Of a DNA stretch of 64,000 bases, positions 8,997 to 29,644 are shown piece by piece. The notes beneath the pieces are model-generated. The model ran no database searches, had not been told where the DNA came from, and saw nothing but the letters and a program-made list of their open reading frames with translations. Position 1 is the first letter of the stretch, and every line of letters begins with the position of its first letter. Source of the stretch: Clostridiales bacterium. GTDB taxonomy: Bacteria > Bacillota > Clostridia > Peptostreptococcales > Anaerovoracaceae. A program made the translations under genes and the position numbers. Location: contig JABZIP010000005.1 of NCBI GenBank assembly GCA_015258265.1, positions 11,521 to 75,520 on the forward strand, in the 5' to 3' direction.

Positions 8997-10263
8997 CTTC
9001 TCTTATTCCTTTTAAATAATTTGAAAATGAAACCTCATGTCCATTTCCTGTGGGTTCGTAGTACCGTATCTTTTCTCGATACAAATTATCAGGCAAGTAC
9101 TGCTGTTTGACATATCCGCCATAATCATGCGGATACTTGTAATCTACACCTCTGCCCAGTTCTTTAGCTCCTGCGTAATGCGAGTCCTTCAAATGATTCG
9201 GTACATCATCTATTTTTTTCTTTCTTAAATCCGACAACGCTCGTTCAATTCCGACATATGCACTATTGGATTTAGGTGCTGCCGACATAGTTACAACCGC
9301 CTGAGCCAGATTTATCCTAGCTTCCGGAAACCCGACAATCAACGCAGCCTGGATGCACGAATTTACTATAACAATTGCATTAGGATATGCCATACCTATG
9401 TCCTCGCTTGCCATAACAAGCAGCCTTCTTGCTATCATTTGCAAGTCCGCTCCTCCGTCTATCAATCGTGCCAAATAATGCAACGCCGCATCCGGATCGC
9501 TACCTCGTACCGACTTTTGAAGAGCAGAAAGCAAGTTGTACTTATCCTCGCTTTTATTATAAAATACAGCTTTTCGTTGAAAGGCTTCTTTCACCTTCGC
9601 CTGTGTAACAGTTTCCCCTTGATTCAAAGAATCCACAATATACGAAACCGTATCCAATGCAACTCTGGCATCCCCTCCCGAAAGTTCTGCTATCAGTCCC
9701 AAGGCATCCTCTTCGTAAGTAATTCCGAGAGTTGAAATCCCCAGCTGTGAATCCGAAAAGGCGCGTCTTAACAATTTTACCAAATCGTCCTCACTAAGTC
9801 GCTTAAACTCATATATATTGCGCACCCTGCTTAAAATAGCGTCATTGATAGAAAAATACGGATTTTCTGTAGTGCTTCCTATAAAGTGCAACACACCTTC
9901 CTCAAGCGCCTTAAGCAAACTGTCTTGCTGTAATTTATTCCATCTATGAACTTCGTCAACATAAAGATATGTGGACTTTGCCTCCAAGCCGTAAAATCTG
10001 AACTCCGCCTCTTCTATTACCGCCTTCAGTTCCTTTACTCCCGATGATACAGCATTGATTTCAACAAAATAGCCATCGCACATGCTCGCTATAATCCTCG
10101 CAAGCGTGGTTTTACCTGTTCCTGACGGTCCAAAAAAAATTGCGGACTCAAATTTCCCATTCATTATCGAATTATACAAAAGAGATCCTTTATATAAAAA
10201 GTGTTCTTGCCCGACAAACTCATCCAGACTCTTTGCTCGCATCCGCGTTGAAAATGGTACCAT
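8980..10263 (-). CDS. rarA: replication-associated recombination protein A (AAA+ ATPase)
   Basis: 427 aa, GPSGTGKTTLARIIA Walker A, MgsA/RarA C-terminal domain. Start overlaps the apbE stop by 1 nt (TAATG). Confidence 0.9.
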   Translation of the reverse strand: MVPFSTRMRAKSLDEFVGQEHFLYKGSLLYNSIMNGKFESAIFFGPSGTGKTTLARIIASMCDGYFVEINAVSSGVKELKAVIEEAEFRFYGLEAKSTYLYVDEVHRWNKLQQDSLLKALEEGVLHFIGSTTENPYFSINDAILSRVRNIYEFKRLSEDDLVKLLRRAFSDSQLGISTLGITYEEDALGLIAELSGGDARVALDTVSYIVDSLNQGETVTQAKVKEAFQRKAVFYNKSEDKYNLLSALQKSVRGSDPDAALHYLARLIDGGADLQMIARRLLVMASEDIGMAYPNAIVIVNSCIQAALIVGFPEARINLAQAVVTMSAAPKSNSAYVGIERALSDLRKKKIDDVPNHLKDSHYAGAKELGRGVDYKYPHDYGGYVKQQYLPDNLYREKIRYYEPTGNGHEVSFSNYLKGIREDEDDN

Positions 10264-11291
10264 TACTTATATTCCTTTAAATTCATATTCTTAGTTGTAA
10301 TTATCTCACCGCTTTTCAGAATAATATCAGCTTCGAATCCTTCCATTTGCTCAATCAAAGCAAGTCCCTTTTCACTGCCGAGCAGCAAACAGATACTGCT
10401 TAGTGCATCTGCATCTACAGAATATCCCTTACTTGCAACTATGCTCACCGATTCCACATCTGTGTCCGCAGGATAGCCTGTAGCAACATCCAGTATATGA
10501 TGATATAACACGCCGTCTTGTTCAAATGCCCTCTCATAAATTCCTGAAGTAACCACTGTGGCATCTGCCACCTCAACATATCCTACAATATCCTTTCTCT
10601 CTGTAAACGGCTTTTCTATTCCTATATTCCAAGGTTTCCCGTCAGACTTAGTTCCGATAGCCACAACATTACCGCCAAGATTTACAAGCGCATGACTTGC
10701 TCCTTGATCTTCTATATACTTTGTTACTTTATCCGCTATGTATCCTTTAGCTATTCCGCCCAAATCAATCGCCACCGCAGTATTCAAAAGACGCGCAAAA
10801 TACAAACCGTTTTCTTCTTTCAACTCTATATTTCGATAATCTATATTTACTAGAGCATTTTCAATCTTTTCCTGCTCAGGCACTTTAGGTTTATCCGCTT
10901 GAAAATCCCAAAGTTCAGCCAGCTTTCCAACCGTTACATCAAACTTTCCTTCAGAAAGCTGCGCATAGTATAAACTTTTTTGTAAAAGTTCATATGTATT
11001 TTCTGTAATTTCAACAAATTCCCCATTAGAGTGATTGACATTATATATATCGCTGCCCTTAACAGTTCTGCTCAATATGTTTTCATAATCCCTGCACAGT
11101 GCAAAAGCTCCCTTTAAAATTTTATTCGCATCTTCTTCCGGCATCCCATAAATACTTATAGAACAAACGGTATCCAAAAGATCGTACTGAGTATCGCTTA
11201 TCACTTCTTCGTCCGCAGACCGGCAAGCACTGAAAGAAAACAACAAAGCCACCAGCAGGCTAAAAGCCAAAGTTTTTCTCAAATTCATCAT
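10263..11291 (-). CDS. apbE: FAD:protein FMN transferase (ApbE family) lipoprotein
   Basis: Signal peptide with lipobox FSAC, DLGGIAKGY motif, ApbE fold. Predicted extracytoplasmic flavinylating enzyme. Confidence 0.85.
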   Translation of the reverse strand: MMNLRKTLAFSLLVALLFSFSACRSADEEVISDTQYDLLDTVCSISIYGMPEEDANKILKGAFALCRDYENILSRTVKGSDIYNVNHSNGEFVEITENTYELLQKSLYYAQLSEGKFDVTVGKLAELWDFQADKPKVPEQEKIENALVNIDYRNIELKEENGLYFARLLNTAVAIDLGGIAKGYIADKVTKYIEDQGASHALVNLGGNVVAIGTKSDGKPWNIGIEKPFTERKDIVGYVEVADATVVTSGIYERAFEQDGVLYHHILDVATGYPADTDVESVSIVASKGYSVDADALSSICLLLGSEKGLALIEQMEGFEADIILKSGEIITTKNMNLKEYK

Positions 11292-11417
11292 TAAATACCT
11301 CCTTAAACGCCTTATTTGTTAGCAATATTTTATCATATTACGCCAAAAAAGTCACTTAAGGAACATTATTTAAACAAAAGTTATTTCAACCGCGCAAATA
11401 CCTTGCTTCAATTCAAA

Positions 11418-11957
11418 TCAATTATACCCGCAATAATACGCTTCTCTTTTCAGTTCTCCTGCTGCCGTCACCAATTTATCTAATGAATAATTCCTATCTA
11501 AATTACCCTTAAATATATTCAGATAGTCAGTACAAGCCGTGCTGTTTAGCGGAATTTCGTTCAAAAGCCGACAAATCTTCTTAGCTATATTTTCCTCGTT
11601 ACTTGCCATTTGATATTTCAATGCTATTTCCATATCATCGTTGATATAAAGCATATTCATTGACAATTCCAATTTTCTCAAATCGAACATATAATTTTCC
11701 GCCCTGCGCAAATTTAAACATAATTTTTCTAAAACTCCCAGTAATTTCAACGGCGTATCTAAATCTTCCGCAGCAACTTTTCTAAAACCTGCATCGTCAA
11801 TAAAGCTGTAAATAGTATCCCCTACGACACTAAAACTTTGCTTTAAAAATACACCATGCTCCCCCTTTGCCAAAATATTCATTTCAAAATCGGCAAGTCG
11901 CTTGCGTTCGTATTGTGCCTCCATATCATACACCCCCACAGATGCTGCAAGGCGCAA
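11418..11957 (-). CDS. hypothetical protein at distal end of Tad pilus operon
   Basis: 179 aa ORF, no recognisable domain and no TM segment. Overlaps the upstream gene by about 30 nt, so the true start may be internal (MEAQYERK...). Confidence 0.45.
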   Translation of the reverse strand: MRLAASVGVYDMEAQYERKRLADFEMNILAKGEHGVFLKQSFSVVGDTIYSFIDDAGFRKVAAEDLDTPLKLLGVLEKLCLNLRRAENYMFDLRKLELSMNMLYINDDMEIALKYQMASNEENIAKKICRLLNEIPLNSTACTDYLNIFKGNLDRNYSLDKLVTAAGELKREAYYCGYN

Positions 11958-13945: not shown

Positions 13946-14364
13946 TTAATCACCATATCCAACTTTCTGATATACTTTTTTTCATCTATGTCATAAAGCA
14001 CCGAATAATGGCTGCGCTTCTTAGTAGAAAACGCTATCCCATAAGAGCTGTACTGTTTTGCCCTTATCCCTTCCAAAACCGTTTCTGTGCCTGTTCGTCC
14101 TCTTTTAATCGTATCGCCATACATGAACACTTGCTTTGAATACTTATCTTGTACCAGCGCCATCGAATTTGAAAATTCAAAACTTCCTATCTTATTGTCA
14201 GTCAAATTTTTTTCCTTCAATTCGATATTAAGTCCGGCTTTTGCCACGCTCGCCATATACATAGATATTATTATGCAAATTACAGTAATCATAGTCAAAA
14301 ATATCAAGGGATATATAAGCGATGCCTCCACAATAGCTCCGCCCTTTTTACATTTAATTTTCAT
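13942..14364 (-). CDS. TadE-like pseudopilin
   Basis: 140 aa, GGAIVEASLIYPLIFLTMITV TadE-family N-terminal motif. Confidence 0.65.
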   Translation of the reverse strand: MKIKCKKGGAIVEASLIYPLIFLTMITVICIIISMYMASVAKAGLNIELKEKNLTDNKIGSFEFSNSMALVQDKYSKQVFMYGDTIKRGRTGTETVLEGIRAKQYSSYGIAFSTKKRSHYSVLYDIDEKKYIRKLDMVIK

Positions 14365-14517
14365 CTAAAAACCCGCATTCATCAATCCTGCAAATATTTT
14401 TTCGACAAAATTGGTTATGTGGCTCTTAAAAAGCAAGCCTACACCGATAGCGATAGCTATAAGTATTCCAACTTGAACCATTTCCATTCCCTTTTTGCTT
14501 CTAAACATTTTCAACAT
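14365..14517 (-). CDS. flp: Flp/Fap family type IVb pilin
   Basis: Approximately 50 aa: MLKMFRSKKGMEMVQVGILIAIAIGVGLLF..., a short leader followed by a hydrophobic helix. GGGAGGA RBS 7 nt upstream. The ORF track's longer N-terminus (to 14562) overlaps tadC. Confidence 0.7.
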   Translation of the reverse strand: MLKMFRSKKGMEMVQVGILIAIAIGVGLLFKSHITNFVEKIFAGLMNAGF

Positions 14518-14536
14518 ACTTTCTTCCTCCCTTCTT

Positions 14537-15703
14537 TCACATATCGAGCATCGCCGGCGCAAGAGTTATTAAAATCAGAGATAAAAGCTGCATCGCAAGC
14601 GGTATGGTCAATTTTGTTTCAGCTACTCTTGCCCGTTCTTCCGCTCGCTTCCTTCTTTGATAAGACAGAAGCTCGCTTTCAGTTTGCATTGCCCGCACAA
14701 GCTCTGTCCCTCTATTGATATTATCGCTTATCACATTAACAACCCTTATAAACTCTTTATTTTCCGTTCGCTTAGAGAATTTTTTCAATTCTACAATTAC
14801 AGAAGCATTGCTTTCCTTAGACTTTTGATTTATTTTCCAAAGTTCATCGTAAAAATACGATTGACAATTTGATATGCTGCCATAAGCAACAGTTTTCTCA
14901 AATGCCGATGTAAATACCATTCCTGCATTTATGAGTAGCACCAATTTATTAAAGAATTCCGACAATTCTCGTTCAACCGATTCTGCTGCCTTTTTTTCCT
15001 CTCTTTTGAACCTTTCGTACCTACCCGCATATACTAACACCAGTCCTAAAATACCTGCAATCAAAATCACTATGTATGTCCTGTCTTTTTTGCTCCTCCA
15101 CGATAGTTGCTTTATACTTCCCGCTTCTTTCGGCAGTTTGATTACATCTCTATCGTCCTTTGCTCCTATAGTATATAATTTAAGTTTAAGTTCATCATCA
15201 GCGCTCTTTCGCCTTGCCGCAAGCAGGCGCTTTTCTTCCTGCTCGCGTTGCTTTTTCACATATCCCTTTGGGTTTACTAAAAGCAATACTTTCTTATCGA
15301 TTTTTTCTTTTTTCGATTTTCCCGATACCACAAGCTCCAAGTTTTTCGGTACTTCTTCCGCAATCTTTCTACTCACATACTGCCTACCGTTTTTCTCAAA
15401 AACTATTTCCTCATCATTTAAAACTATGTTTATGACAAAACAAGTAATTAACATAGTAGCGATAACTAAAATCAGAAAATATCTTTTGCAAATTTCGCTC
15501 CTGTGTCTTTCAATCTTCGAAAAATCCGCTTCATCTCCGCAAACCTTATAAAGTAATCTTCTGAATTCCTCCTCTTGCCCCGTAAACCTCGCGGGTAGGA
15601 CTTTGGATATTTTTTTAGAAATCTCATCCAAACTATTGCTCAATTTTCCGTCATTCGAAATAAAGCTATTATCGTTTTTTAAACTCATTTTAAAGAATTT
15701 CAT
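14537..15703 (-). CDS. tadC: Tad pilus assembly protein TadC (T2SS F domain) with extended N-terminal region
   Basis: C-terminal approximately 150 aa are a GspF/T2SSF-like domain with TM segments. N-terminal approximately 230 aa are Lys/Glu-rich between two TM helices. Confidence 0.7.
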   Translation of the reverse strand: MKFFKMSLKNDNSFISNDGKLSNSLDEISKKISKVLPARFTGQEEEFRRLLYKVCGDEADFSKIERHRSEICKRYFLILVIATMLITCFVINIVLNDEEIVFEKNGRQYVSRKIAEEVPKNLELVVSGKSKKEKIDKKVLLLVNPKGYVKKQREQEEKRLLAARRKSADDELKLKLYTIGAKDDRDVIKLPKEAGSIKQLSWRSKKDRTYIVILIAGILGLVLVYAGRYERFKREEKKAAESVERELSEFFNKLVLLINAGMVFTSAFEKTVAYGSISNCQSYFYDELWKINQKSKESNASVIVELKKFSKRTENKEFIRVVNVISDNINRGTELVRAMQTESELLSYQRRKRAEERARVAETKLTIPLAMQLLSLILITLAPAMLDM

Positions 15704-16470
15704 ATTTCAATATCCATTATCCTTCCCATCACATAATAAGCTGCTGCGGTAATAGCAAGTGCAAGTGTCATTATCAACATTCCTATTCCCGTATGATACA
15801 GCTTGTCCAAATACCCGGGAGACATCAAGTTAAGAAAAACTATTATCACAAGCGGCATTAAACTGATAATTTTTCCCTCAACACGCTTTTGCGCTGTCAA
15901 TGTTTGAATTTCTCTTGATACATTTAATCTATTAACCAAAATTTGCGTTGTATTCAAAATCACCTGTTTCACATCAGCCCCCGTACTTCTACAAATGGAA
16001 TAAGTTTCAGCAAAACTGATTATTTCGGCAATCCTACTCCTATACGCAAAATCCTTTAATAGTTCCTCCTCATTGGCATGACTTTCTTTTATAGCATTTA
16101 TCATTAAAGAAAGCTCCTGCATGATAGGCTCGCTATCGTTATAAATCAAACTCAAACTGCCTTCAGCTTCTAACAGCGCCTCCGCCATTTGTCTCCCCGA
16201 GCTTATAGATGCATCCAGCGCATATAGCAAGTCCCGAAAACTATACCTAAGCCTTTCTGAAATTTGCCGCAACCTATAAGCCTCGTAAAATCTCTTAAGC
16301 GGTACAGAAAGCAAAGAAAAAACTACAGACACGATAATGTTTCCATAAAAAATCACTCCGACCACCATAAATGCGGATATGCATTTCATATAATAATCTA
16401 CCGTTTCCTTTTTAGATAACCTGTAAACCGTATAATTCGGTTTCTTATTATCTAACTCTCCTTCGCCCAT
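15700..16470 (-). CDS. tadB: Tad pilus assembly protein TadB (T2SS F domain)
   Basis: 256 aa polytopic protein with T2SSF-like domain. Alternative start at about 16389 (MKCISAF...) would remove the overlap with cpaF. Confidence 0.7.
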   Translation of the reverse strand: MGEGELDNKKPNYTVYRLSKKETVDYYMKCISAFMVVGVIFYGNIIVSVVFSLLSVPLKRFYEAYRLRQISERLRYSFRDLLYALDASISSGRQMAEALLEAEGSLSLIYNDSEPIMQELSLMINAIKESHANEEELLKDFAYRSRIAEIISFAETYSICRSTGADVKQVILNTTQILVNRLNVSREIQTLTAQKRVEGKIISLMPLVIIVFLNLMSPGYLDKLYHTGIGMLIMTLALAITAAAYYVMGRIMDIEI

Positions 16471-17828
16471 AATTCCTCCTCTTTAAGCCCACGAAGTATC
16501 ATTTTTCTGATATTTTTCATCTTATTTCCCGTTCGCTGCAGCCCTTTTTCCTTATCATACAGGAATATTTCGTTCAACACATAATCGGAGCCGTCATGTC
16601 CCAGTATCTCTGTAATTTCAAGCACTTTTCTACTTTTATCCGCCATTCGGCTCAAATGCACCATTACATCTATCCCTTCAACAATCTGTCCTCTTATCGC
16701 GTCTATTGGAAAATCCGCCGCTTGCATTACCATAGTTTCAAGTCTTTTCAACATTCCCTTTACAGAATTACCATGTCCTGTAGAAAGTGAACCGTCATGC
16801 CCGGTATTAAAAGCATTCAGCATATCAAGCACTTCCTTGCCTCTCACTTCACCGACAATTATCCTGTTAGGTCGCATCCTCAGACTGCTTCTTATAAGCT
16901 GCTGCATATCGACCTCGCCCATACCCTGAACATTAGATTGTTTGCATTCCATTCGCACCAAATTCTCAATGCCGATAATTTGAAGCTCCGCAGCATCTTC
17001 TATAGTTATCACTCGCTCATCCTTCGGAATATACGACGAAAGCACATTAAGCATGCTCGTTTTGCCGCTTCCTGTTCCTCCACTTATAAAAACATTCGAA
17101 CCGAACCTCACCAATTTTTCCAAAAAATCAGCAGCCTCTTCCGTAATGCTTCCAAACCCTATCATATCTTTCATATCATAGGCTTTCTCAGGAAATCTCC
17201 TAATCGTAAGCGCAGGTCCGTTCAGCGCCACATTCTTATAAACGGCATTCACCCTTGATCCGTCTAAAAGTCTGGCATCTACTATAGGATTTAATTCGTT
17301 TATCTCTCTGTGGACTCTCGCCGCTATCCTCCTAATGATTTCCTCGAGCTCCTCAACATTCGAAAAACTTTTCCCCGTATTTATAAGAGTACCGTCGCGC
17401 TCCACAAAAATGTTTTCCGTGCCGTTCACCATTATCTCCGTAACTTTCTTATCTTCCGTAAATGGATACAATAGTCCGACATCGCAGCGAACCGAAAAGT
17501 AAACTTGCCTAATCAGATTGTCTTTTTCTCGAAAATTCAAATCTTTCGTAAGCTCACTGTCAAGCAATAATCTTTCGATAAATTCAAATGCCGCTTCTTC
17601 GCTTTCAAAACTTTCGCCGACACTCATGGCTTTCCTCACAAAAGAGAGTGCCTCAGTCCTGACCTCATTATCAAGTTTCACCATTCCGTAATCCAAATCC
17701 ATAATTGCGTTTTCTTCCTTTGCTTGCAATTTATTCCTGTTATATACATAATAAAACAGCTGCAATAGAATTGCAACTGTTTTAATTCGACTTTTTTCGA
17801 CATGCCTGTGGATAACTTCCTCCGGCAT
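16452..17828 (-). CDS. cpaF: CpaF/TadA family pilus assembly ATPase
   Basis: 458 aa, Walker A GGTGSGKTS, VirB11/CpaF signature ITIEDAAEL, His box. Confidence 0.88.
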   Translation of the reverse strand: MPEEVIHRHVEKSRIKTVAILLQLFYYVYNRNKLQAKEENAIMDLDYGMVKLDNEVRTEALSFVRKAMSVGESFESEEAAFEFIERLLLDSELTKDLNFREKDNLIRQVYFSVRCDVGLLYPFTEDKKVTEIMVNGTENIFVERDGTLINTGKSFSNVEELEEIIRRIAARVHREINELNPIVDARLLDGSRVNAVYKNVALNGPALTIRRFPEKAYDMKDMIGFGSITEEAADFLEKLVRFGSNVFISGGTGSGKTSMLNVLSSYIPKDERVITIEDAAELQIIGIENLVRMECKQSNVQGMGEVDMQQLIRSSLRMRPNRIIVGEVRGKEVLDMLNAFNTGHDGSLSTGHGNSVKGMLKRLETMVMQAADFPIDAIRGQIVEGIDVMVHLSRMADKSRKVLEITEILGHDGSDYVLNEIFLYDKEKGLQRTGNKMKNIRKMILRGLKEEELWAKES

Positions 17829-18332: not shown

Positions 18333-18962
18333 TCAATTTTGCGCACCGGCAAGAGCAGCTTTAACCGCTCCTTTGATGCCGTTTGAACTGTAAGTAGCTC
18401 CGGCAACCGCATCCACATCCGCACTTTGTGCTGCCAAGATTTTACCGATTACCGCCTTTGCATCATCGATATACGGAGAATCCTCTTTGTGCGAAATAAT
18501 ACTTATTGACTTGATTGCATCCGCCTTCAATACAACCGATACCGTAATATTATCGACATATCCTTTGGCACTTCCCGTAAAAGTTCCGTCTTTGTACTTT
18601 TGCGCAGGAACTGTAGGTTCCGCCTTTTCCGGTTCGGTTTTCAATATTTCTTTCTTTTCAGGCTCTGCTTTAGCAGTTGCCGTTTTTTCCGATTCCGCCT
18701 TTACGGATTTTGATTTTTCAGCTTCATCCGCCGGCTTTGCTTCCTGTTTTTCTACCGGTTTGTCTGCAGTTTTTTCTTCCGATTTTTTTGCTTCTGCCGT
18801 AGGTTCCTCCTCTTTTTTTTGCGTTTCGCTTTCCTGCTTTTCGGAAACTGCCTTCACAGTCTCACTTTTATCCCCTTCGATTTTATCAGTTTTTTCACAA
18901 CCCGACAAAAATACGCTTACACAGATTGCCAGCACAAATACCAACAACTTGACTTTTTTCAT
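18333..18962 (-). CDS. FMN-binding domain lipoprotein (ApbE substrate type)
   Basis: Lipobox FLSGC, Lys/Glu/Ala-rich linker, C-terminal FMN_bind domain with flavinylation motif DAVAGATYSS. Start taken at MKKVKLL. Confidence 0.8.
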   Translation of the reverse strand: MKKVKLLVFVLAICVSVFLSGCEKTDKIEGDKSETVKAVSEKQESETQKKEEEPTAEAKKSEEKTADKPVEKQEAKPADEAEKSKSVKAESEKTATAKAEPEKKEILKTEPEKAEPTVPAQKYKDGTFTGSAKGYVDNITVSVVLKADAIKSISIISHKEDSPYIDDAKAVIGKILAAQSADVDAVAGATYSSNGIKGAVKAALAGAQN

Positions 18963-19047
18963 AATCTCCTCCATATACATTTTTTAATTTCATCCACGTT
19001 TATATTTTTTATTTCATTCTTTTGCTCGCATACTTGCTTCAGAGCAC

Positions 19048-19752
19048 CTAATGTTTTTCGCTTTTTTGCCCTAGCGCCTTTCTGATTCTCAAAAATGCGT
19101 ACATACCGAATACAACCGTATAAATGGCAGAGTCGATAACATAATGCCAAAATACGTCGTAATGCTCAAGTTGCCGCATTTGCAGAGCTATTGATACAAA
19201 AATCAACATTACATGAATATATATGAGCATATAGAACGGATACGCCAATCTTTGCAGTTTTTTCCAACTTTTCGCTTTCATCTTTTTCCTTACGCTCTTA
19301 AATGATGTGATCATCAAAGGCAACATAACAGCATCCAAAACTATCGTCAGGATAGTAGCAATTACAAAAGGTGTACTCAAGCGCTCTCTTGATGTAAAAA
19401 GCCACACTATATAATTTTTCCCATAGAAAAAATTGTGCACAAGTGTCAATATACAAGCTATAATCGAAAGCTCTGCACGAACCGACATCAGCCGTATCTT
19501 GATTTGTGTACCGTTTTTAAATATAGCAGCCCACATCACAAGTGTAAAAAGTGCAGTCGCCACTATTCCCCGTTCAAACAGCATAGATATCTCATGAAGC
19601 AGGGCATTTGTACGCATAATCTCAAAGCCTGCCGCCGATATGCAAAATATGACAAATGCACCTATGTAGTAAACAGGTGCGTATTTTTTAATAGATTTGT
19701 GCAAAAACATCACAACGGCAAGTAAAACCACCGTAGTTAAAATAAATTTCAT
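19048..19752 (-). CDS. ferric-reductase-like transmembrane (MsrQ/YedZ-type, di-heme b) protein
   Basis: 234 aa, 6 predicted TM helices with conserved His in TM helices (HNFFYG, YIHVML). Lies immediately upstream of the FMN-binding lipoprotein. Confidence 0.6.
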   Translation of the reverse strand: MKFILTTVVLLAVVMFLHKSIKKYAPVYYIGAFVIFCISAAGFEIMRTNALLHEISMLFERGIVATALFTLVMWAAIFKNGTQIKIRLMSVRAELSIIACILTLVHNFFYGKNYIVWLFTSRERLSTPFVIATILTIVLDAVMLPLMITSFKSVRKKMKAKSWKKLQRLAYPFYMLIYIHVMLIFVSIALQMRQLEHYDVFWHYVIDSAIYTVVFGMYAFLRIRKALGQKSEKH

Positions 19753-19849
19753 AGTACATCCTTATTTGTTTTATATACTTTAACTTTATAATCTTTAAAT
19801 ACTATAATAAAAAATTAAACTTTTTAAATTTTTGTGTTTAGTCTGCAAT

Positions 19850-19873
19850 AGGAGTGGCTGAAAAGCCACTCCT
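19850..19873 (-). terminator. 10-bp perfect stem-loop (AGGAGTGGCT-GAAA-AGCCACTCCT) 8 nt downstream of the SLH gene stop; weak U-tract
   Basis: Seen directly in the sequence; there is no strong T-run on the minus strand. Confidence 0.4.
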
Positions 19874-19880
19874 AAATTTG

Positions 19881-22094
19881 TTAAGGTTTAGAAATCCATA
19901 AATCATTTTTTTCACCCAATAATTTTCTGAGTTCACCATTACCATTTAGCATGTCATCAAAGTTTTCTATATTAATACTAATAACTATATTAGTTCCTCC
20001 TATAACTCTAACCCTTTTTATCTTTAAATCTGTATGACTTATTGCTTGCCCAGACTTATTATAAAACTGAATGTTATCGGCATTTATGCCACTTAAACTT
20101 GAACCCAAAGTTTGAAAATCTTCTTGTTTAAGTTGATATCTGGCTTTATTTTTTACTAATGTAATTTTTACTTTTTTCCCATCCTTAGAAATTTCCAAAT
20201 AATCAGGTACATTATTAGCATTCGACACATCAGCTGCCTCTATCGTTATTTTGTGTTCATAAAATACACTGTCATCTTCTTTATATGCGATTTTTAAGCT
20301 TATCTGTTTGCCTGCATCATTCGGATCATCTGTTATAACATCTCCTATATTCAAAGGTGAACCATTTTTCGTTATAGTCAAATAATTTGTGTAATTTAAC
20401 TTGTTCACATTTTCGCTATATTTATCCTCATTTTCAGCAATCAATTTTACAGCAAAATCATCACCAATTTCAAATTTATCGCCTACCTTAACTTTGTTTT
20501 TTATTCCGGTAATATATTCAATGCCTATAATTTTCCTCTGCTCTTCCTCCGTAACATTCGTAAAATCTTTTTTATAATCGATACGATATGTTTCAAATTC
20601 AAACATTTTTTCTGCATTTAAATTGTGTGTGTTTTCTTGCAACAAGGTGTCTTTCTCCGATTGTGCAACATCTATATATAGACTTCCGCTTTTTTTATGC
20701 GCATCACCTCTATAATGCTTATCGCCTACCTCTTTCAGCGTTACCCTGCTACCGTCGCTCTTGATAAGCTCGATATCCTGCAATTCTTTGTGCGCTAAAT
20801 CAATTCCCACCTCGTATCGGAACTCCGAATTTTTTCCGTGGCTCACAACTATGTCTTGATAAGTAATTTCTTGCGGTGATTTTTTATCCTTCAAAACAAG
20901 CCTTATTTTCTCAATTTGCACATATATCGGTTTTACCGAAAATTGCACTTCTTTCAAAAGCTCCATGCCGGATTCTTTGTGTTTCCAATGTATTTTATAA
21001 TTTGCACGATAATTTGTATTGTCAGTTCTATTTATCGGTTTTGTAATATCTATTTTTTCGCCGTTTTTGTCGGTTACGAATACTTCAATCCCCTCGCTGT
21101 CAAAGTCCTTGGCTTGTATCTCGCGCCCTAATTTCAGTACCGAGTTGCGATTTGATTTTGTAACGGGATTTGGTAGAGAAGTGTGCACCGGAATCAATCT
21201 GATACTTGCCGGCAAAAGCTCAATTTTCTCACCGAAATATTGCGGAACGCTCTCATACGCATGATCTGCCAAGAATTTTTCTTTTTCCTTTTCATCCGAT
21301 AATGCAGCCAGCGCTTTCTTTTGCTCCGCAGTAAGCTCATGCTTTTCAAATTTACCCGGTGCATTTATCAACCAAAAGCCCTTGTATTTTTGCTGTTTTC
21401 CACTTTTCGCATCATTGAGCGCATTTTTGAAGCCTTTTCTAAAACCTTCCGCACTTTTTGTCGAACCGCTAACAGCATCAACAATAGCACCAACACCCTT
21501 TTTCTCATTAAATTGCTCATAAATTTTCTTTAATGGTGTTTTCTTTACATAATCTACTACTCTTTCCGAACCGCCTGTATATTTCCAATCATCATCATCG
21601 TCCACGAAAAACTCAAGCGCCGCGTCTACAACGGTCCCCCTTGCTATGGATATTTTCGCTATATTCTTTTTAGGGAAATCGAATCCTTTATCTCCATTTT
21701 TGCTTTGTCTTTCCGCACTCGAAAATCCATACCCCTCACCGTAATATGTGCCATCTTTAAAAGTCGAATCTATTTCCGATTCTTGCGGTGCATGATACTC
21801 TCCCAGTTTTAAATTCATAGCCTTTAATTGAGAGCCTGTTTTAACCTCAATTTCGTATTTAATTGAAGGTTCGAATATATACTCCCCGTTTTCATTTTTA
21901 GCTGCAAAATTTATTTTGCTCGAATCTGTATTTATTATTCGTTTTGCTATTTCACCTCTATATACAGCTTCTTTTCCTGTATCAACCGGCTTGGCTTTTA
22001 TTTTTACCTCTTCTACACTGCTCACAAGCATTTTTAGAAGTCCGGAATTTTGATCGCCTGCAACCGCCAAATCTCCCTTTTGGTTCATAGTCAA
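19881..22094 (-). CDS. SLH/FMN-binding surface protein paralog 1, C-terminal segment after frameshift
   Basis: 737 aa. The +1 frame continues the interrupted FMN_bind domain (SNGLVRAVENAVIAGN), then a third FMN_bind (VSGSTKSAEGF) and Ig-like repeats. TTG/ATG start overlaps the upstream stop. Confidence 0.6.
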   Translation of the reverse strand: MTMNQKGDLAVAGDQNSGLLKMLVSSVEEVKIKAKPVDTGKEAVYRGEIAKRIINTDSSKINFAAKNENGEYIFEPSIKYEIEVKTGSQLKAMNLKLGEYHAPQESEIDSTFKDGTYYGEGYGFSSAERQSKNGDKGFDFPKKNIAKISIARGTVVDAALEFFVDDDDDWKYTGGSERVVDYVKKTPLKKIYEQFNEKKGVGAIVDAVSGSTKSAEGFRKGFKNALNDAKSGKQQKYKGFWLINAPGKFEKHELTAEQKKALAALSDEKEKEKFLADHAYESVPQYFGEKIELLPASIRLIPVHTSLPNPVTKSNRNSVLKLGREIQAKDFDSEGIEVFVTDKNGEKIDITKPINRTDNTNYRANYKIHWKHKESGMELLKEVQFSVKPIYVQIEKIRLVLKDKKSPQEITYQDIVVSHGKNSEFRYEVGIDLAHKELQDIELIKSDGSRVTLKEVGDKHYRGDAHKKSGSLYIDVAQSEKDTLLQENTHNLNAEKMFEFETYRIDYKKDFTNVTEEEQRKIIGIEYITGIKNKVKVGDKFEIGDDFAVKLIAENEDKYSENVNKLNYTNYLTITKNGSPLNIGDVITDDPNDAGKQISLKIAYKEDDSVFYEHKITIEAADVSNANNVPDYLEISKDGKKVKITLVKNKARYQLKQEDFQTLGSSLSGINADNIQFYNKSGQAISHTDLKIKRVRVIGGTNIVISINIENFDDMLNGNGELRKLLGEKNDLWISKP

Positions 22095-23380
22095 AGATGA
22101 TTCGTCGATATTACCTGCGATAACCGCATTCTCAACAGCTCTAACCAGTCCGTTGCTCCTGATACCGCAGATATTTTCTCTGTCGATGTTATATCTGCAA
22201 ATTGTTTCAATATGGAGCTTTTCACACTCGCCAAATAGCTTACATCCTCGCTATTTTCCTCTATAACAACATTTTTTATCACATTGTCTTTTACGGTTAC
22301 CTTTACATTCATCTGCCCCCTATATCCTTGCGCAGAACCTGAATACTCCTTATCCGACAATTTTTTCAGATATCTTGAAAGGTCAATACCGCTATAAAGC
22401 GCTGTCGAATGTTTTCTATTGGCGCCTGTACTTCCTACCGTTCCGATGCTCCCCTCTCCTTTTTGCTGTGATATGCAATCCTTTACAGCGTCCTTGATTG
22501 CATTGCACGAAAGAGTTGCTCCGGAAATATTGTCTATTCCTTCCACGCTTTGTTTTTCAATAATTTGTGCTATAATAGCTTTTGCTCTGCTTAAATACGA
22601 GCCTGTTTCATTGTCGGAAATTATCTTAATATCAACTATTTTCCCTTTATCAAAAAGCACCTTCAGCTTCATCGTACCGCCGTAGCCGGCTCCCGTGCCT
22701 TCAAATGCCTGCTCGTTGATATTTTTGAGTACCTCTGCCATTTTTCTTTCGCTCTTTGAAAGAATCAGAACCGCTTGTGCCCTACTTATGCCTTTCTTCG
22801 GATTCAATCTGTTAAATTCTCCGCTAATTACACCTGCTGCTACCAGTACCGATATAGCTTCCCTCGCATAATCCGATATAGCTCCCGCATCGGAAAATTT
22901 CGATATATCCGCGACTTTTTGTCCTTCTTTACCCTTTGGATAAGTGAGCCTATAAAGCATTACGAAAGCCTGTTCTCTGGTAATTGCAACTTCCGGCGAC
23001 ATAGTGTTCGCACCTGTCCCCTTCATGTACCCCGCCTGTAACGCCTTCGCCATGTCGGATCTGTACCATGCATTGCTACTTACATCCGTAAAATCGGATA
23101 TCTTGCTGCTTTCTTCAGAAAATTGCATGATTCTGTTGATTACCGCAGCATATTCAGCTCTGCTCATATTTTTATCAGGGAATACCCTCCCGCTTTCATC
23201 TCCTTTTAGATAGCCTTTTTTGTTAAAATCTTTAAGCGTATTTACCATCCAGTGTCCATCTATGTCCGACGGCATTATACCTTTGGCTTCCTCTGCATTT
23301 GCAGCTGTAAAAAATCCGGTCATTGATACAAATCCGAATACAAATGCAAAAGTCAAAATGGAAAGTCGTCTAATATTCAA
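22091..23380 (-). CDS. SLH/FMN-binding surface protein paralog 1, N-terminal segment (signal peptide, 3 SLH, FMN_bind 1, truncated FMN_bind 2)
   Basis: 429 aa. First approximately 220 aa are identical to the 24853..28551 protein. Ends ISAVSGAT followed by out-of-frame residues. Confidence 0.65.
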   Translation of the reverse strand: MNIRRLSILTFAFVFGFVSMTGFFTAANAEEAKGIMPSDIDGHWMVNTLKDFNKKGYLKGDESGRVFPDKNMSRAEYAAVINRIMQFSEESSKISDFTDVSSNAWYRSDMAKALQAGYMKGTGANTMSPEVAITREQAFVMLYRLTYPKGKEGQKVADISKFSDAGAISDYAREAISVLVAAGVISGEFNRLNPKKGISRAQAVLILSKSERKMAEVLKNINEQAFEGTGAGYGGTMKLKVLFDKGKIVDIKIISDNETGSYLSRAKAIIAQIIEKQSVEGIDNISGATLSCNAIKDAVKDCISQQKGEGSIGTVGSTGANRKHSTALYSGIDLSRYLKKLSDKEYSGSAQGYRGQMNVKVTVKDNVIKNVVIEENSEDVSYLASVKSSILKQFADITSTEKISAVSGATDWLELLRMRLSQVISTNHL

Positions 23381-23508
23381 TTTTGTTCCTCCTCAATATT
23401 TCATGTATTTTAGTTGTACTTTGTTAGCATATGCTAACTATACGAAGGGAATTATATCATTAGCCATAGGCAACTGTCAATATTTTGAACACAAAAAAAC
23501 ATTTGTGT

Positions 23509-23562
23509 CCAAATGAATTTATACATGTGTAAAAAAACAGGCTTGAATAAAATTCAAACCTG
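23509..23562. repeat. 54-bp direct repeat copy A, containing a bidirectional rho-independent terminator (A7-stem-T7)
   Basis: CCAAATGAATTTATACATGTGTAAAAAAACAGGCTTGAATAAAATTCAAACCTG; copy B at 24754-24806 has 3 differences. Confidence 0.8.
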
Positions 23563-23582
23563 TTTTTTTAATGCGTTTACGC

Positions 23583-24650
23583 TCACTCCAGCTCGCGCCT
23601 GGTTCTACGCATAAACTCAACTAATTGCTCTTTGGTCGGTAAATGGAGCATATATGTCGATACAAACAACTGATTATCCATACCTGATAAAGCATACTCG
23701 ACCATCTCAGTTCCCTTATCTGTACAAAGCAGAATACCTATCGGCAAATTGTCGCCTTCTACCATTTCATTCTTTTTATAGTACGCCACATAGGAATTCA
23801 ATTGCCCAAGATCCTCATGCTTGAATTCATCGTTCTTCAGTTCAATGATGACATTACAATGAAGCAACTTGTTATAGAAAACCATATCTATGAAATAATA
23901 CTTATCGTCTATTACAATTCTCTTTTGTCTGGCTTCAAAGCAGAAACCTTCACCTAGTTCAAGTATGAACTCTTGCAGATGATCTATTAAAGCCTGTTCC
24001 AGAACTGATTCAGATACCGCATCACCCGGATTCAGTCCAAGGAATTCAAATGTAAACGGATCTTTTATTGATAATGCTGTGCTTCTGGCATTATCCTCTG
24101 ACAGCTTCATCAACAACTCTGGCTTCTTACTGATTCCAGCTCGCACGAATAAATTCGTCTTAATCTGTCTGCGCAGTTCTCTAACGCTCCAATTACATTT
24201 AATCGCCTCTGCTTCATAGAAGTATCTTTCCATCGGGTCATCAAGAATCATAATTTCCCTTATGTGTGAAAACGAAAGATTGTCAACCAGCAATTCCGGT
24301 TCCATAATAAATTCGTGCGACAATGTCGCACTTTTTTGAAAATCAAGCAACCCCAATTGGTGCGACACTGTCGCACCAATCTGCGGATACATAACATAAA
24401 ACTGTCTGCACCACTTGAATAGCGTAGAATTTAATCCCTTTTGATCGATCTGCCTCTCCAGATTGTTTAAAAGATTAGTTCCATACTCTGCTCGATCACT
24501 ACCACCTTGCTCATACTCAACTATATAGTAGCCAATAGCCCAGTTCCTAAGTGTCATCAGTTTGTTAACGGCATGCTTTGCCACGTTGCCCGCCTCGTCA
24601 TTGAGCTTTTTTATGCTGTCTGCAAGCGTCATGAATTTGATATCCGACAT
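23583..24650 (-). CDS. yhcG: YhcG/DUF1016 family PD-(D/E)XK nuclease
   Basis: 355 aa. C-terminal IDMVFYNKLLHCNVIIELK...GQLNSYVAYY matches the YhcG_C PD-(D/E)XK core (D...ELK); N-terminal YhcG_N-like domain. Confidence 0.75.
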   Translation of the reverse strand: MSDIKFMTLADSIKKLNDEAGNVAKHAVNKLMTLRNWAIGYYIVEYEQGGSDRAEYGTNLLNNLERQIDQKGLNSTLFKWCRQFYVMYPQIGATVSHQLGLLDFQKSATLSHEFIMEPELLVDNLSFSHIREIMILDDPMERYFYEAEAIKCNWSVRELRRQIKTNLFVRAGISKKPELLMKLSEDNARSTALSIKDPFTFEFLGLNPGDAVSESVLEQALIDHLQEFILELGEGFCFEARQKRIVIDDKYYFIDMVFYNKLLHCNVIIELKNDEFKHEDLGQLNSYVAYYKKNEMVEGDNLPIGILLCTDKGTEMVEYALSGMDNQLFVSTYMLHLPTKEQLVEFMRRTRRELE

Positions 24651-24753
24651 AATGATTCCTCTCGTTTCTAATAAGAAATTTCCCTATTTCGTTTATATTT
24701 TGATTATATCTTATTAGCACTCCTGTTACAACTACATTATCTCACGACAATCT

Positions 24754-24806
24754 CCAAATAAATTTGTACATGTGTAAAAAACAGGCTTGAATAAAATTCA
24801 AACCTG
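24754..24806. repeat. 54-bp direct repeat copy B, acting as terminator of the upstream SLH gene
   Basis: CCAAATAAATTTGTACATGTGTAAAAAACAGGCTTGAATAAAATTCAAACCTG; hairpin followed by a T6 run on the minus strand. Confidence 0.8.
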
Positions 24807-24852
24807 CTCTTTAATTTTAGTTTACTGCAATTTGCTTATTGGGATTGCGCTA

Positions 24853-27800
24853 TTAATCTTCGTCATGTCCTTCTTCGCCGCCGTTATTTTCGCCATCCTG
24901 ACTGTCATCATCACCCTCTTGGTCATCACCCTGATCATCGCCGTCATCCTGATTGCCCTGCTCATCCTCGTTATCCTTTTGGTCGTCTTCGTTTGCAGGT
25001 GGATTTGGCTGTTCACCCGGAGTGCCCGGGTTAGCAGGCTCTTGTGGCTTTTCAGGTACAGTTGATTGTTCGCTATCCGACGATTTTTTTACCATAAGAT
25101 ATTCCTTGGACTTAATCTCCAATCTTAAATCTCCATACTCAAATGTTACCTTTAAATTCTTTAAAAATGCATTTAACGGTGTCAATACAGTCTCATTTTC
25201 AGGATCTGTAGATATTCCATAATCATCAAAGAATTCAGGAGTTACATCTTTTACCTTTCCATCACTACTTTTCAATGTAACAATCATGCCCGCAACATCA
25301 AATTTTTCTCCAATAAAGTACTGCATTTTGGGTAGTTTTTTGATTTCTATAGAAGTTGTTTTCTCAATATCATAATCATCTTGAGGCTCTTGCGACTCTT
25401 CTTTTTCTACATCAAAAGTGATTTTGTAGAAAAAGTTTACATTAAGGTCTTTTTCGTGATCCTTCTCATCCATAGAAAATTTTAATTCTTTGTTTTCATC
25501 ATTTTTATCTATTTTCAATTCATCTTTTGCGATGATATACTTAGAATCCGAATTCGCTGAATCTGTAGGATTTTTTCTAACAATTCTTAACTTAAGATTT
25601 TTTCCTACAAAATTATCGTTCCATTTAGCTCTGCTAATAGCTACTTTTTGATGAACATTTATGTTATTTTCATCGTACGGTGCACCCGGAGTTGGCTTTG
25701 CCTTTTCAGGATTATCTACGTCTTTCCAATCCTCATTTCCAATTTTATATTGCATCCCCACAGTCCAATTTTCATTATATTCATCATTGACTACTATCGA
25801 AAATACATCTTCCCTAAGTGAAGGTCCATGCTCTATCAATATAGGTACTGCATATGTAGGAAAATCTTTGAGCTTCATACCATCAGTTATAAGCGTTCCG
25901 TTTTTCGTTTTCATGGTTATGCCATTTCCTGCAAATTGGTCAATCCCGATTTCACTTATAGTGCCGTTTTTGTTTATAAGTTTTACTTTTAGTTTGCTCA
26001 AGTTTAAAGGTAATATCCTATTTGTGAAAACTTTTTTGTCCAAAATTCCTGTAACTTCAATCTCATTAATTTCATTATTGGTTTCATTATCATGAGCTGA
26101 AAGTTCAAGCGCATTACCAACAGAATTTGCAATACCGCCTGCCGTCAATGTCGCTCCCGAAACGCTGTCAAACAGATCGTCTTTATCATACTCTCCTGCA
26201 AGATATGTCTTTACCGCTTTTGAAATTTCTCGAACCACATCAGTTGAAGAAGCCGAGTTTGAAATTTCTTGAACTATTTTTGCACAATTTTTACCTAAAA
26301 GTTCTGTAGCTTTTGCATTTCTTTCAGAATTGATCTTAATATTTTCAATTTCACCGGTATATTTATAACAACACCTAACGACAGCAATATTTTTGCGAGC
26401 ATTTTCACCGGAAATAAAATTTAATAATCCTTCTGCTTTTTCTATATAGCCCGGATCTTCACTTATTAAGCTATCGCCCGGAAGTATCTCAATGCTCTTA
26501 ACCACTCCATTTGTAATTTTTACCTTTGTCTTTACCGTTGCTGTATCATTAAAACCTTTACCAACTCCTATAAATATGCCATCCTTAAGTTTTCTATCCA
26601 CAGTCAGTTCTTTTATAAGTTTGTCCGATGCAGTTTTAGCCGCCTTTTCACTTGCCTCAAGTGTTGATGCAGCATCATTTGAGCCGTTTTTAACTACATT
26701 AGGAGATTGTAAAACAAGTTTAAATCCATCACTTTTATATTCTTTTTGTTCTTTGTTAAATTCACTTACCGATTTAGGCAATCTTAAATTTTCAACCTTA
26801 CTTGTTGAAGTAATGGTTACATTTCCATTCTTTGCCTTTGCACGCAACGTTTTTACATTGGCAGCTATGGTAACTTCCTTATCTCCGGTTTCTAAATCTT
26901 TTGCTAATTCTATTTGCTTTATTTTAGCATTTTCAAGCGTTTTGATAATTGCGGGTGTTTTAACAAGTACATTTTCCAGCTTCGTCGAACTGTCTACTAC
27001 AAGTCTTGGTCTTTTGCCATTATTCTTAGCTATTATAACATCTCCCTCGACTTTCGTATTTTTCAAATATATACCATGCGATCCTCCACCATTTATTATC
27101 AGTTTCCCGCTTATTGTAACATTCTCCAATATTACATCGCCATCGGCAACTTTTTCTGATACTGTAATATCCTTTTCTATTGTCACATTTTTTACTGCAA
27201 CTTTATTACCTACTAAGTTGGCCGATATGATTTTTTTCCCATTTCCATCATACTGCCCGCTTATTGATTTTTTACCACCGGCGTTTTCAAGAGCATTTAC
27301 AACCGCATTAATAAGTCCTATGCTGCTTTTTGTTGCTCCGGATACCGTATCCACTTTAGTTGATTGTGTATTTATTATTTTTTGTATAATACCTTTTGCG
27401 CCTTCATCTCTTAAATAGCCTGCATCATCATGGTTCGCATATTCAATTTTGCTTATCTTTCCATCCTGCACAGTAACTTTCACACTCATAGAGTTTCTAC
27501 GGTATCCATCTGCCCTTCCCTCATACGTTCCATTATTCAGCTCTGCAAAATCAACTTCCTGTTTAGCTACAGCCACGCCACCACCTTTACTGCTTCCTGT
27601 GCTTCCGACAGTACCTATGCTGCCCTCCCCTTTTTGCTGAGATATGCAATCCTTGACAGCATCTTTTATTGCATTACAAGAAAGAGTTGCACCTGAAACA
27701 TTGTCTATGCCCTCTACGCTTTGTTTTGCGATTATCTGCGCTATGATTTTCTTTGCCCTTTCAAGATACGAGCCTGTTTCATTATCGGAAACTATCTTAA

Positions 27801-28551
27801 TATCAACTATTTTCCCTTTATCGAAAAGCACCTTCAGCTTCATCGTGCCGCCGTAGCCGGCTCCCGTGCCTTCAAATTCCTGCTCATTGATATTTTTGAG
27901 TACCTCTGCCATTTTTCTTTCGCTCTTTGAAAGAATCAGAACCGCTTGTGCCCTACTTATGCCTTTCTTCGGATTCAATCTGTTAAATTCTCCGCTAATT
28001 ACACCTGCTGCTACCAGTACCGATATAGCTTCCCTCGCATAATCCGATATAGCTCCCGCATCGGAAAATTTCGATATATCCGCGACTTTTTGTCCTTCTT
28101 TACCCTTTGGATAAGTGAGCCTATAAAGCATTACGAAAGCCTGTTCTCTGGTAATTGCAACTTCCGGCGACATAGTGTTCGCACCTGTCCCCTTCATGTA
28201 CCCCGCCTGTAACGCCTTCGCCATGTCGGATCTGTACCATGCATTGCTACTTACATCCGTAAAATCGGATATCTTGCTGCTTTCTTCAGAAAATTGCATG
28301 ATTCTGTTGATTACCGCAGCATATTCAGCTCTGCTCATATTTTTATCAGGGAATACCCTCCCGCTTTCATCTCCTTTTAGATAGCCTTTTTTGTTAAAAT
28401 CTTTAAGCGTATTTACCATCCAGTGTCCATCTATGTCCGACGGCATTATACCTTTGGCTTCCTCTGCATTTGCAGCTGTAAAAAATCCGGTCATTGATAC
28501 AAATCCGAATACAAATGCAAAAGTCAAAATGGAAAGTCGTCTAATATTCAA
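24853..28551 (-). CDS. giant SLH-anchored multi-FMN-binding surface protein (paralog 2)
   Basis: 1232 aa. Signal peptide, 3 SLH repeats, FMN_bind x2 (VSGATLSCN, VSGATKSS), a right-handed beta-helix-like repeat region, FMN_bind 3 (VSGATLTAGG), Ig-like repeats, and a 50-aa acidic D/E/Q/G C-terminal tail. Confidence 0.8.
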   Translation of the reverse strand: MNIRRLSILTFAFVFGFVSMTGFFTAANAEEAKGIMPSDIDGHWMVNTLKDFNKKGYLKGDESGRVFPDKNMSRAEYAAVINRIMQFSEESSKISDFTDVSSNAWYRSDMAKALQAGYMKGTGANTMSPEVAITREQAFVMLYRLTYPKGKEGQKVADISKFSDAGAISDYAREAISVLVAAGVISGEFNRLNPKKGISRAQAVLILSKSERKMAEVLKNINEQEFEGTGAGYGGTMKLKVLFDKGKIVDIKIVSDNETGSYLERAKKIIAQIIAKQSVEGIDNVSGATLSCNAIKDAVKDCISQQKGEGSIGTVGSTGSSKGGGVAVAKQEVDFAELNNGTYEGRADGYRRNSMSVKVTVQDGKISKIEYANHDDAGYLRDEGAKGIIQKIINTQSTKVDTVSGATKSSIGLINAVVNALENAGGKKSISGQYDGNGKKIISANLVGNKVAVKNVTIEKDITVSEKVADGDVILENVTISGKLIINGGGSHGIYLKNTKVEGDVIIAKNNGKRPRLVVDSSTKLENVLVKTPAIIKTLENAKIKQIELAKDLETGDKEVTIAANVKTLRAKAKNGNVTITSTSKVENLRLPKSVSEFNKEQKEYKSDGFKLVLQSPNVVKNGSNDAASTLEASEKAAKTASDKLIKELTVDRKLKDGIFIGVGKGFNDTATVKTKVKITNGVVKSIEILPGDSLISEDPGYIEKAEGLLNFISGENARKNIAVVRCCYKYTGEIENIKINSERNAKATELLGKNCAKIVQEISNSASSTDVVREISKAVKTYLAGEYDKDDLFDSVSGATLTAGGIANSVGNALELSAHDNETNNEINEIEVTGILDKKVFTNRILPLNLSKLKVKLINKNGTISEIGIDQFAGNGITMKTKNGTLITDGMKLKDFPTYAVPILIEHGPSLREDVFSIVVNDEYNENWTVGMQYKIGNEDWKDVDNPEKAKPTPGAPYDENNINVHQKVAISRAKWNDNFVGKNLKLRIVRKNPTDSANSDSKYIIAKDELKIDKNDENKELKFSMDEKDHEKDLNVNFFYKITFDVEKEESQEPQDDYDIEKTTSIEIKKLPKMQYFIGEKFDVAGMIVTLKSSDGKVKDVTPEFFDDYGISTDPENETVLTPLNAFLKNLKVTFEYGDLRLEIKSKEYLMVKKSSDSEQSTVPEKPQEPANPGTPGEQPNPPANEDDQKDNEDEQGNQDDGDDQGDDQEGDDDSQDGENNGGEEGHDED

Positions 28552-28777
28552 TTTTGTTCCTCCTCAATATTTCATGTATTTTAGTTGTACTTTGTTAGCA
28601 TATGCTAACCACACGAAGGGAATTATATCATTAGCCATCGGCAACTGTCAATATTTTGAACACAAAAAAACATTAATTTTTTCGAAAGAACAATATGTGT
28701 ATTTACAAAAAATAAGGAGATACCGTAGTTTCTCCCTATTTTTAAATTTAATACCCTATATACCATAAAGCGGTCTA

Positions 28778-29644
28778 TTATTTACCTGCTAAAGTTCTGA
28801 TGTAATAAAAAAGATACTGCTGCGCTATTCCGCCGTTATCCCCAAAATGAGTTGCCGCATATTCATTCATCCCTTTTGTATCCTTCTCATCAAAGCCATA
28901 AACATCGTGCATCACGCGCTTCACCCAGACATCTATGGGAAACGCCTCAAATTTGCCGAGTCCAAATAACAATATGCAATCCGCTACCTTCGGTCCTATA
29001 CCGGAAAGTCCCAAAAGAAATTCACGTGCCGTTTTGTAATCCATTTCTCCTATTCGTGCAAATTCCTCGTGATTTCTTGCAAGCTGCGCACTTGTAACAG
29101 CTATGTACTCAGCCCTATATCCCAATTTCAGTATTTTTAAATCTTCGACACCGGCTTTTTGAAGTTCAAAAACTGTCGGAAACGCATAATGCGCTTCGCC
29201 ATTTTCACATACAATTCGCTCGCCGAATTTCTCTGCAATTGCGTTTATACATTTCTTTATTCGCGGTATATTGCTGTTTTGTGAAACTATAAACGAAATT
29301 ATCGTTTCAAATATGTCCTGTTTCAAAATTCGTATTCCCTCGCCATAGGAAATTGCTACAGCGAGTTTTTTGTCTTTCGCAGCAAGTTTTTCTTTAATCT
29401 TCCCATAATCTCTGCTAAGATCAAAATAACTTTCCCAAAATGCCCTATCTGCTACTGCATTTTTTGCCTCAATCGTAAGTACACCCGAGTAATTATCTCG
29501 GTTCTCAAGCGAAATATACGCGGCTTTGTTGGAAACTATCCCGAAATATCTACCGTCCGCCTGCCTTTCCCACCGAAAACACTGCCCACATTCAAATATT
29601 TGCACCAAGTCAAAGTCGCGGACCTGCAATTCTAATTTTTCCAT
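28778..29644 (-). CDS. ogg: 8-oxoguanine DNA glycosylase / AP lyase (Ogg family, HhH-GPD)
   Basis: 288 aa, HhH-GPD motif LSGIGPKVADCILLFGLG with catalytic Lys/Asp, Ogg N-domain. Confidence 0.75.
   Translation of the reverse strand: MEKLELQVRDFDLVQIFECGQCFRWERQADGRYFGIVSNKAAYISLENRDNYSGVLTIEAKNAVADRAFWESYFDLSRDYGKIKEKLAAKDKKLAVAISYGEGIRILKQDIFETIISFIVSQNSNIPRIKKCINAIAEKFGERIVCENGEAHYAFPTVFELQKAGVEDLKILKLGYRAEYIAVTSAQLARNHEEFARIGEMDYKTAREFLLGLSGIGPKVADCILLFGLGKFEAFPIDVWVKRVMHDVYGFDEKDTKGMNEYAATHFGDNGGIAQQYLFYYIRTLAGK

Follow-up and report, generated by a model that had tools for sequence, protein, structure and literature searches.

A private 13-nt deletion splits one of two tandem genes for SLH-anchored FMN_bind proteins in a Clostridiales bacterium

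The window analysed here, a 64,000-nt stretch of contig JABZIP010000005.1 from a Clostridiales bacterium, carries on its minus strand two tandem paralogous genes for predicted surface flavoproteins, the downstream of which (paralog 1) is split into two open reading frames (ORFs). With a probability that we place at about three in four, the split reflects an ordinary gene disruption, in which a private and very recent 13-bp microhomology deletion hit one of the two paralogs. Paralog 1 would ancestrally have encoded a secreted protein of ~1170 amino acids (aa), anchored through S-layer homology (SLH) repeats and equipped with three domains that bind flavin mononucleotide (FMN), in other words a multi-flavinylated cell-surface electron-transfer protein. 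The 13 bp would then have been lost between two AAC triplets, by replication slippage or microhomology-mediated deletion, directly after the flavin-accepting Thr of domain 2 (SGAT-FTR-NGL). A first-pass annotation of the DNA had left the choice between a pseudogene, a sequencing indel and a two-piece gene, and the first of these options, a pseudogene or disrupted gene, is the best supported.

The ORF listing and six-frame translation divide paralog 1 between a 429-aa ORF (23380..22091) and a 737-aa ORF (22094..19881). The stop codon of the former (TGA, 22093..22091) overlaps a TTG of the latter (22094..22092) as TTGA, reproducing the split and the overlap that had first been read from the sequence, and an ATG located 2 nt past the TGA (22088..22086) gives a 735-aa product. 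The 5' fragment (22091..23380, minus strand) comprises a signal peptide, three SLH repeats (89 bits in Pfam), an intact FMN_bind 1 and an FMN_bind 2 that stays in frame up to SGAT, both FMN_bind stretches being matched by Pfam. The signal peptide, recognised by inspection, reads MNIRRLSILTFAFVFGFVSMTGFFTAANA immediately before EE, with a hydrophobic core and an AxA site. SGAT is followed by an out-of-frame tail (22091..22150, minus strand) of nineteen codons (DWLELLRMRLSQVISTNHL) and the premature TGA; the C-terminal end of the ORF reads ...KISAVSGATDWLELLRMRLSQVISTNHL. In the alternative frame the same DNA reads ...IRSNGLVRAVENAVIAGNIDESSLTMNQKGD..., enters the 737-aa ORF and continues the second FMN_bind domain, confirming that the break lies inside this domain near GCAACGGAC. 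The frame of the downstream ORF, initially called +1, is −1 (= +2) relative to the 429-aa ORF, because (23380-22094) mod 3 = 2. The 3' fragment (19881..22094, minus strand) holds the end of FMN_bind 2, a third FMN_bind (VSGST) and ~500 aa without a Pfam match, the only Pfam match in the 737-aa ORF being to the C-terminal end of a further FMN_bind. There is one flavinylation motif per FMN_bind domain in the translations (NISGAT, AVSGAT and AVSGST); that of domain 2 is kept in the window, with all residues past its Thr out of frame. The two halves were deposited as separate proteins of one 89,405-bp NCBI contig of a metagenome-assembled genome (MAG; HXK71_03130), both identical to the window ORFs: MBF0980295.1 (429 aa), under the name 'S-layer homology domain-containing protein', and MBF0980294.1 (735 aa), under the name 'hypothetical protein'.

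The change of frame results from missing DNA. At the deletion junction (22151..22155, minus strand) the window lacks 13 nt, AACTTTTACGAGA (equivalently TTTTACGAGAAAC), which are present in all orthologs and carried by seven related contigs. Aligned with three of these (L001-L003), the window DNA shows a single AAC-flanked gap: where the orthologs have GGAGC-AAC-TTTTACGAGA-AAC-GGACT, it has GGAGC-AAC-GGACT, running over the junction as GGAGCAAC followed directly by GGACTG. The AAC that remains (22154..22152) belongs to a 3-nt direct repeat, present in two copies before the deletion, that bounds the lost segment and is extended by an imperfect 5-nt repeat (GCAAC/GAAAC). Global alignment of the complete gene, which measures 3500 nt in the window and 3513 nt in both L005 and L001, yields no second indel, and 76 substitutions relative to L005 and 102 relative to L001. 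Deletions that arise by replication slippage or through microhomology typically fall between short direct repeats in this way. Because the loss takes out the codons for F-T-R plus one base, the frame is shifted by −1, leaving 19 codons out of frame before the stop at 22091-22093. The stretch suspected of harbouring a sequencing indel, about 22150-22160, does include the lesion (22151-22155); a 1-nt sequencing indel was rejected, the difference being 13 nt long and AAC-flanked.

The orthologs point to a single ancestral gene. A search with the reconstructed junction plus the C-terminal sequence found single-ORF orthologs of 1170, 1158, 1159 and 1195 aa (97, 85, 80 and 62% identity), all four of which read ...AVSGAT-FTR-NGLVRAVENA... 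across the junction. Single-ORF orthologs of 1159-1170 aa bear out the ~1160-aa ancestor originally envisaged. From the protein clusters around the orthologs (51, 11 and 3 members) we retrieved 26 family proteins covering the site, 24 of them from the same species. All 24 read SGATFTRNGLVRAV (SGAT-FTR-NGLVRAV) in one frame and none is split; those complete at both ends measure 1140-1170 aa. The only split versions among the retrieved family proteins are P0020 (429 aa, MBF0980295.1) and P0006 (735 aa, MBF0980294.1), the deposited halves themselves. Of the observations that the first-pass annotation had named as refuting its reading, neither applies: the orthologs are unsplit, and no 1-nt error accounts for the frame change. 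Shorter cluster members end at contig edges, and one starts with an apparently non-native leader sequence. A 74-aa FMN_bind lipoprotein call in L001 (about 14640-14652) likewise looks truncated, owing to a scaffold gap of Ns; most of the short members of these clusters are artefacts of assembly. Among JGI metagenome contigs the deletion junction had 0 matches and the intact sequence 3 (L007-L009), both out of small denominators. Searches for exact matches to the 429-aa protein and to the 1232-aa product of paralog 2 returned nothing besides the source record, and the sole return of a genome-collection scan with the intact ortholog P0001 was a distant FMN_bind match at 33% identity.

A downstream ORF that overlaps its predecessor in the −1 frame is also seen in genes with programmed −1 frameshifting, such as dnaX and those of IS3-family transposases, and one could suppose that programmed −1 frameshifting or transcriptional slippage yields a fusion here, or that the gene is deliberately split into cooperating products. 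The overlapping or abutting stop and start (TTGA, with the ATG 2 nt past the stop), the fully open state of both ORFs and a weak promoter-like match (22135..22108) would suit such two-part expression, although matches of this kind occur at chance frequency (18 found versus 16.8 expected). However, there is no X XXY YYZ slippery heptamer between 22260 and 22091 and no homopolymer or short tandem repeat at the site (no A/T runs of 5 or more, no G/C runs of 4 or more), in agreement with the earlier remark on homopolymers, and the overlap, none of the 24 orthologs being split, is not conserved. Programmed frameshifting and transcriptional slippage were ruled out because both a slippery heptamer and a homopolymer are missing; a frameshift product would, in addition, still miss F-T-R beside the flavinylation site.

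An independent second gene fares no better. No Shine-Dalgarno (SD) sequence is present in the 20 nt before the TTG or the ATG (ΔG +0.1 kcal/mol), compared with anti-SD ΔG values of -5.5 to -11.5 kcal/mol at the called starts of neighbouring genes, and the starts of both paralogs carry GAGGAGG. The N-terminus of the 737-aa ORF (MTMNQKGDLAVAGDQNSG...) is devoid of a hydrophobic signal sequence. With neither feature, and with the promoter-like match at chance level, this candidate was ruled out. Without SD and signal peptide a 735/737-aa product, if made, would stay cytoplasmic, away from the extracytosolic flavin transferase ApbE, so that its FMN_bind domain would presumably not be flavinylated. 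The missing heptamer, homopolymer, SD and signal peptide led us to reject recoding, phase variation and a designed two-piece gene alike, and functional two-part expression, including the two-piece gene among the options first listed, is very improbable. Reversible phase variation of the surface protein, as at a contingency locus, is even harder to credit: the product is a variable, mosaic surface protein from a polymorphic locus, which would suit such a system, but the site has no simple-sequence repeat (its sole repeat is the AAC...AAC pair of the intact allele), a 13-nt deletion of unique sequence cannot revert by slippage, and no other assembly shows an off state at the site.

The deletion appears to be very recent, since just one amino-acid change is private to the window copy over 1143 comparable positions (most intact orthologs have 0-4). 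This change is a G for D in KK[G/D]ISRAQ, and the window's own paralog 2 has the same residue. No further decay of paralog 1, in the form of extra stops, excess private substitutions or lost expression signals, was found, and both halves are open. Several considerations weigh against a simple, real disruption. The source is a MAG, in which a consensus error or a minority variant is possible, and the missing secondary decay is equally expected from an artefact. Moreover, the 429-aa stub may be made and partly functional, so that 'pseudogene' may overstate the loss, and low-level termination-reinitiation is possible at the TGA and ATG, which lie 2 nt apart.

It is conceivable, if unlikely, that the deletion is an assembly or consensus artefact or a minority allele in the MAG, the dominant genotype having an intact 1170-aa gene and the deposited proteins being annotation fragments. 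The window sequence is itself the NCBI MAG contig; the lesion is private (0 of 24 other proteins, 0 matches in JGI contigs); paralog 1 shows no other decay; and a near-identical 1.08-kb repeat ~270 nt upstream of the site could complicate assembly. To our knowledge, however, the loss of 13 nt between 3-nt repeats, in non-repetitive and non-homopolymeric DNA, is not typical of short- or long-read error. In the 23.7 kb that align collinearly with L005 at 97.8% identity, every other indel is intergenic, has a length divisible by 3 or is cancelled by an opposite one a few bases away; none of them leaves a coding frame broken, which indicates that the assembly is not generally indel-prone. The deletion site also lies outside the duplicated block, 270 nt beyond its end at 22425. 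Taken together, the clean 23.7 kb and the position of the site favour a real mutation, and we infer that the deletion is a true one.

Paralog 1 matches the class of multi-flavinylated extracytosolic FMN_bind proteins, substrates of ApbE, that have cell-wall-binding domains (Meheust et al. 2021, eLife, PMC8238504), and a function in flavinylation-dependent redox chemistry is predicted. It shares with this class, and with its structurally characterised members CbFMN4 and SaFMN3 (PMC10339131; PDB 8P2B and 8P2A), several FMN_bind domains (PF04205) with the motifs ISGAT, VSGAT and VSGST, which compare with the reported consensus [S/T]GA[S/T] (PMC8238504), as well as a signal peptide plus SLH anchor and a gene neighbourhood with ApbE, an FMN_bind lipoprotein and a polytopic membrane protein. 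Three FMN_bind stretches (107.5 bits) were found in the intact ortholog P0001. In contrast to the class, the window copy is broken inside domain 2 by the 13-nt deletion, both paralogs have long C-terminal regions without a Pfam match, and Pfam recognises the membrane partner as none of the MsrQ-like, PepSY, NapH or DsbD types. In P0004 of a sister species (L006 10001-13588) the domain-2 motif is VSNAT, not VSGAT; this departure from the consensus suggests that some lineages may leave domain 2 unflavinylated.

The consequences for the protein can be anticipated from known structures. The nearest matches of known structure are crystal structures of single FMN-binding domains taken from multi-flavinylated proteins (8P2B, E = 0.007; 8P2A, E = 0.086), in which the flavinylated Thr opens the last α-helix and the next two residues hydrogen-bond the isoalloxazine (PMC10339131). 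The deletion takes exactly the residues past this Thr (F-T-R), and 19 unrelated residues replace the last helix; domain 2 of the window copy is almost certainly non-functional. The secreted product loses everything distal to the break, namely domain 3 and the ~500 aa without a Pfam match. The promoter of paralog 1 (23451..23480, minus strand) is a perfect sigma-70-like TTGACA-18-TATAAT with an extended TG, as a consensus match only, and sits within a 5' block common to paralog 2. With this promoter and the ribosome-binding site (RBS) undamaged, the cell may still make an SLH-anchored stub that retains one good flavin domain; the expected product would be a 429-aa protein with one intact and one crippled flavin domain. 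The 3' two-thirds (737 codons) is open and has no RBS or export signal, and its product would probably be neither made nor exported. The function of paralog 1 has probably been lost. In its single frame-breaking deletion, open halves, intact paralog and annotation as two coding sequences the locus resembles an ordinary single-lesion pseudogene; it differs in showing no other decay, in its intact promoter and RBS, and in a 5' stub that may be expressed.

Upstream of paralog 1 lies the intact tandem paralog 2 (24853..28551, minus strand), which encodes 1232 aa with three SLH repeats and three FMN_bind domains; its residues 325-1232 (a 908-aa query) are 97% identical to the 1232-aa P0030. The two genes share a 5' block of 1079 nt that covers promoter, RBS, signal peptide, SLH repeats and FMN_bind 1 (22425..23503 for paralog 1 and 27596..28674 for paralog 2, both minus strand), the copies being 95.8% identical. 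The disruption would probably be tolerated with an intact paralog that shares the anchor module, and redundancy with paralog 2 is plausibly the reason. That the tandem arrangement is a metagenomic mis-assembly was ruled out by the same gene order in an independent 263-kb contig (L005), where paralog 1 is intact at 1170 aa, and by a sister species (L006) whose tandem paralogs encode 1218 and 1195 aa.

The locus (window 18333-29644) varies among related genomes. L001, L002, L003, L007 and L009 have a single paralog-1-type gene only, L005 has both paralogs intact, and in the window paralog 2 is intact and paralog 1 broken; this variable gene content could have arisen through recombination between the 1.08-kb direct repeats, with loss or gain of genes. 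Within the window the two copies of the 5' block agree at most of the variable sites among the first ~780 alignment columns, and those of L005 (9879-10956 and 15049-16125) are identical over a different, middle stretch; in L006 the block extends to 1.77 kb and is 85% identical (about 6030-7780 and 9890-11650). Such within-genome homogenisation points to ongoing gene conversion. Between the two paralogs the window has a YhcG/DUF1016 PD-(D/E)XK nuclease-family gene (23583..24650, minus strand), which L005 also has at this place and which is missing from the tandem pair of L006. This gene is flanked by a 61-nt direct repeat, 92% identical (24753-24812 and 23508-23568), that consists of a strong rho-independent terminator hairpin (CAGGTTTGAATTTTATTCAAGCCTG plus a T-run, ΔG about -19 kcal/mol) and then ~24 nt of flank. 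Of its two copies, one comes after paralog 2; the other comes after YhcG and directly adjoins the 5' block of paralog 1. This suggests that YhcG entered the intergenic spacer by insertion and that the terminator was duplicated in the process.

The outer parts of these proteins also differ between alleles. The last ~190 aa of P0002 and P0003 (L002/L003 13195-13480) are unrelated to P0001 and the window (19881-20190), their extreme C-terminal ~90 aa match the sister-species P0004, and P0005 joins a paralog-2-like N-terminal half to a paralog-1-like C-terminal half. These mosaic alleles indicate that modules have probably been shuffled within the family. A more far-reaching and rather doubtful idea is that the locus swaps its surface flavoprotein and that the break shows one stage of this process, the conserved anchor module acting as a recombination handle by which outer modules are exchanged, deleted or silenced. 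If true, this would amount to an antigenic- or phage-receptor-variation-like system on a redox protein, with the 13-bp deletion selected as the loss of an exposed variant and not a product of neutral decay.

In every locus, the gene next downstream of the flavoprotein gene encodes a conserved 234-aa polytopic membrane protein (19048..19752, minus strand), for which Pfam gives no family at E<=0.01, nor anything credible when the threshold is relaxed to E<=1. The C-terminal region of the MamZ model (profile positions 526-593 of 633), a ferric-reductase/YedZ-like part of the profile, is faintly matched (E = 6.8e-6), and the protein may be a membrane electron conduit and a candidate unrecognised partner of the flavinylated proteins. 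It is followed by the FMN_bind lipoprotein (18333..18980, minus strand; lipobox LSGC). The ApbE flavin transferase (10263..11291, minus strand; Pfam 286 bits) is encoded ~8.6 kb downstream of paralog 1 and is syntenic in L002, and a desulfoferrodoxin gene is also among the neighbours. Between the flavoprotein locus and ApbE lies a Tad/Flp-type pilus cluster (11418-17828, minus strand) containing T2SSE ATPases, DUF5702 and a Flp1_like pilin, the last identified by synteny with L002.

Overall, the split of paralog 1 involves no new mechanism and no new gene architecture; events of this kind are ordinary, and the protein class is a known one. For the databases, it means that MBF0980295.1 and MBF0980294.1 are fragments of one 1170-aa gene, which the annotation should flag as frameshifted. 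For the organism, an SLH-anchored multi-flavin protein would appear to be dispensable where a tandem paralog is kept, which fits a variable and partly redundant family.

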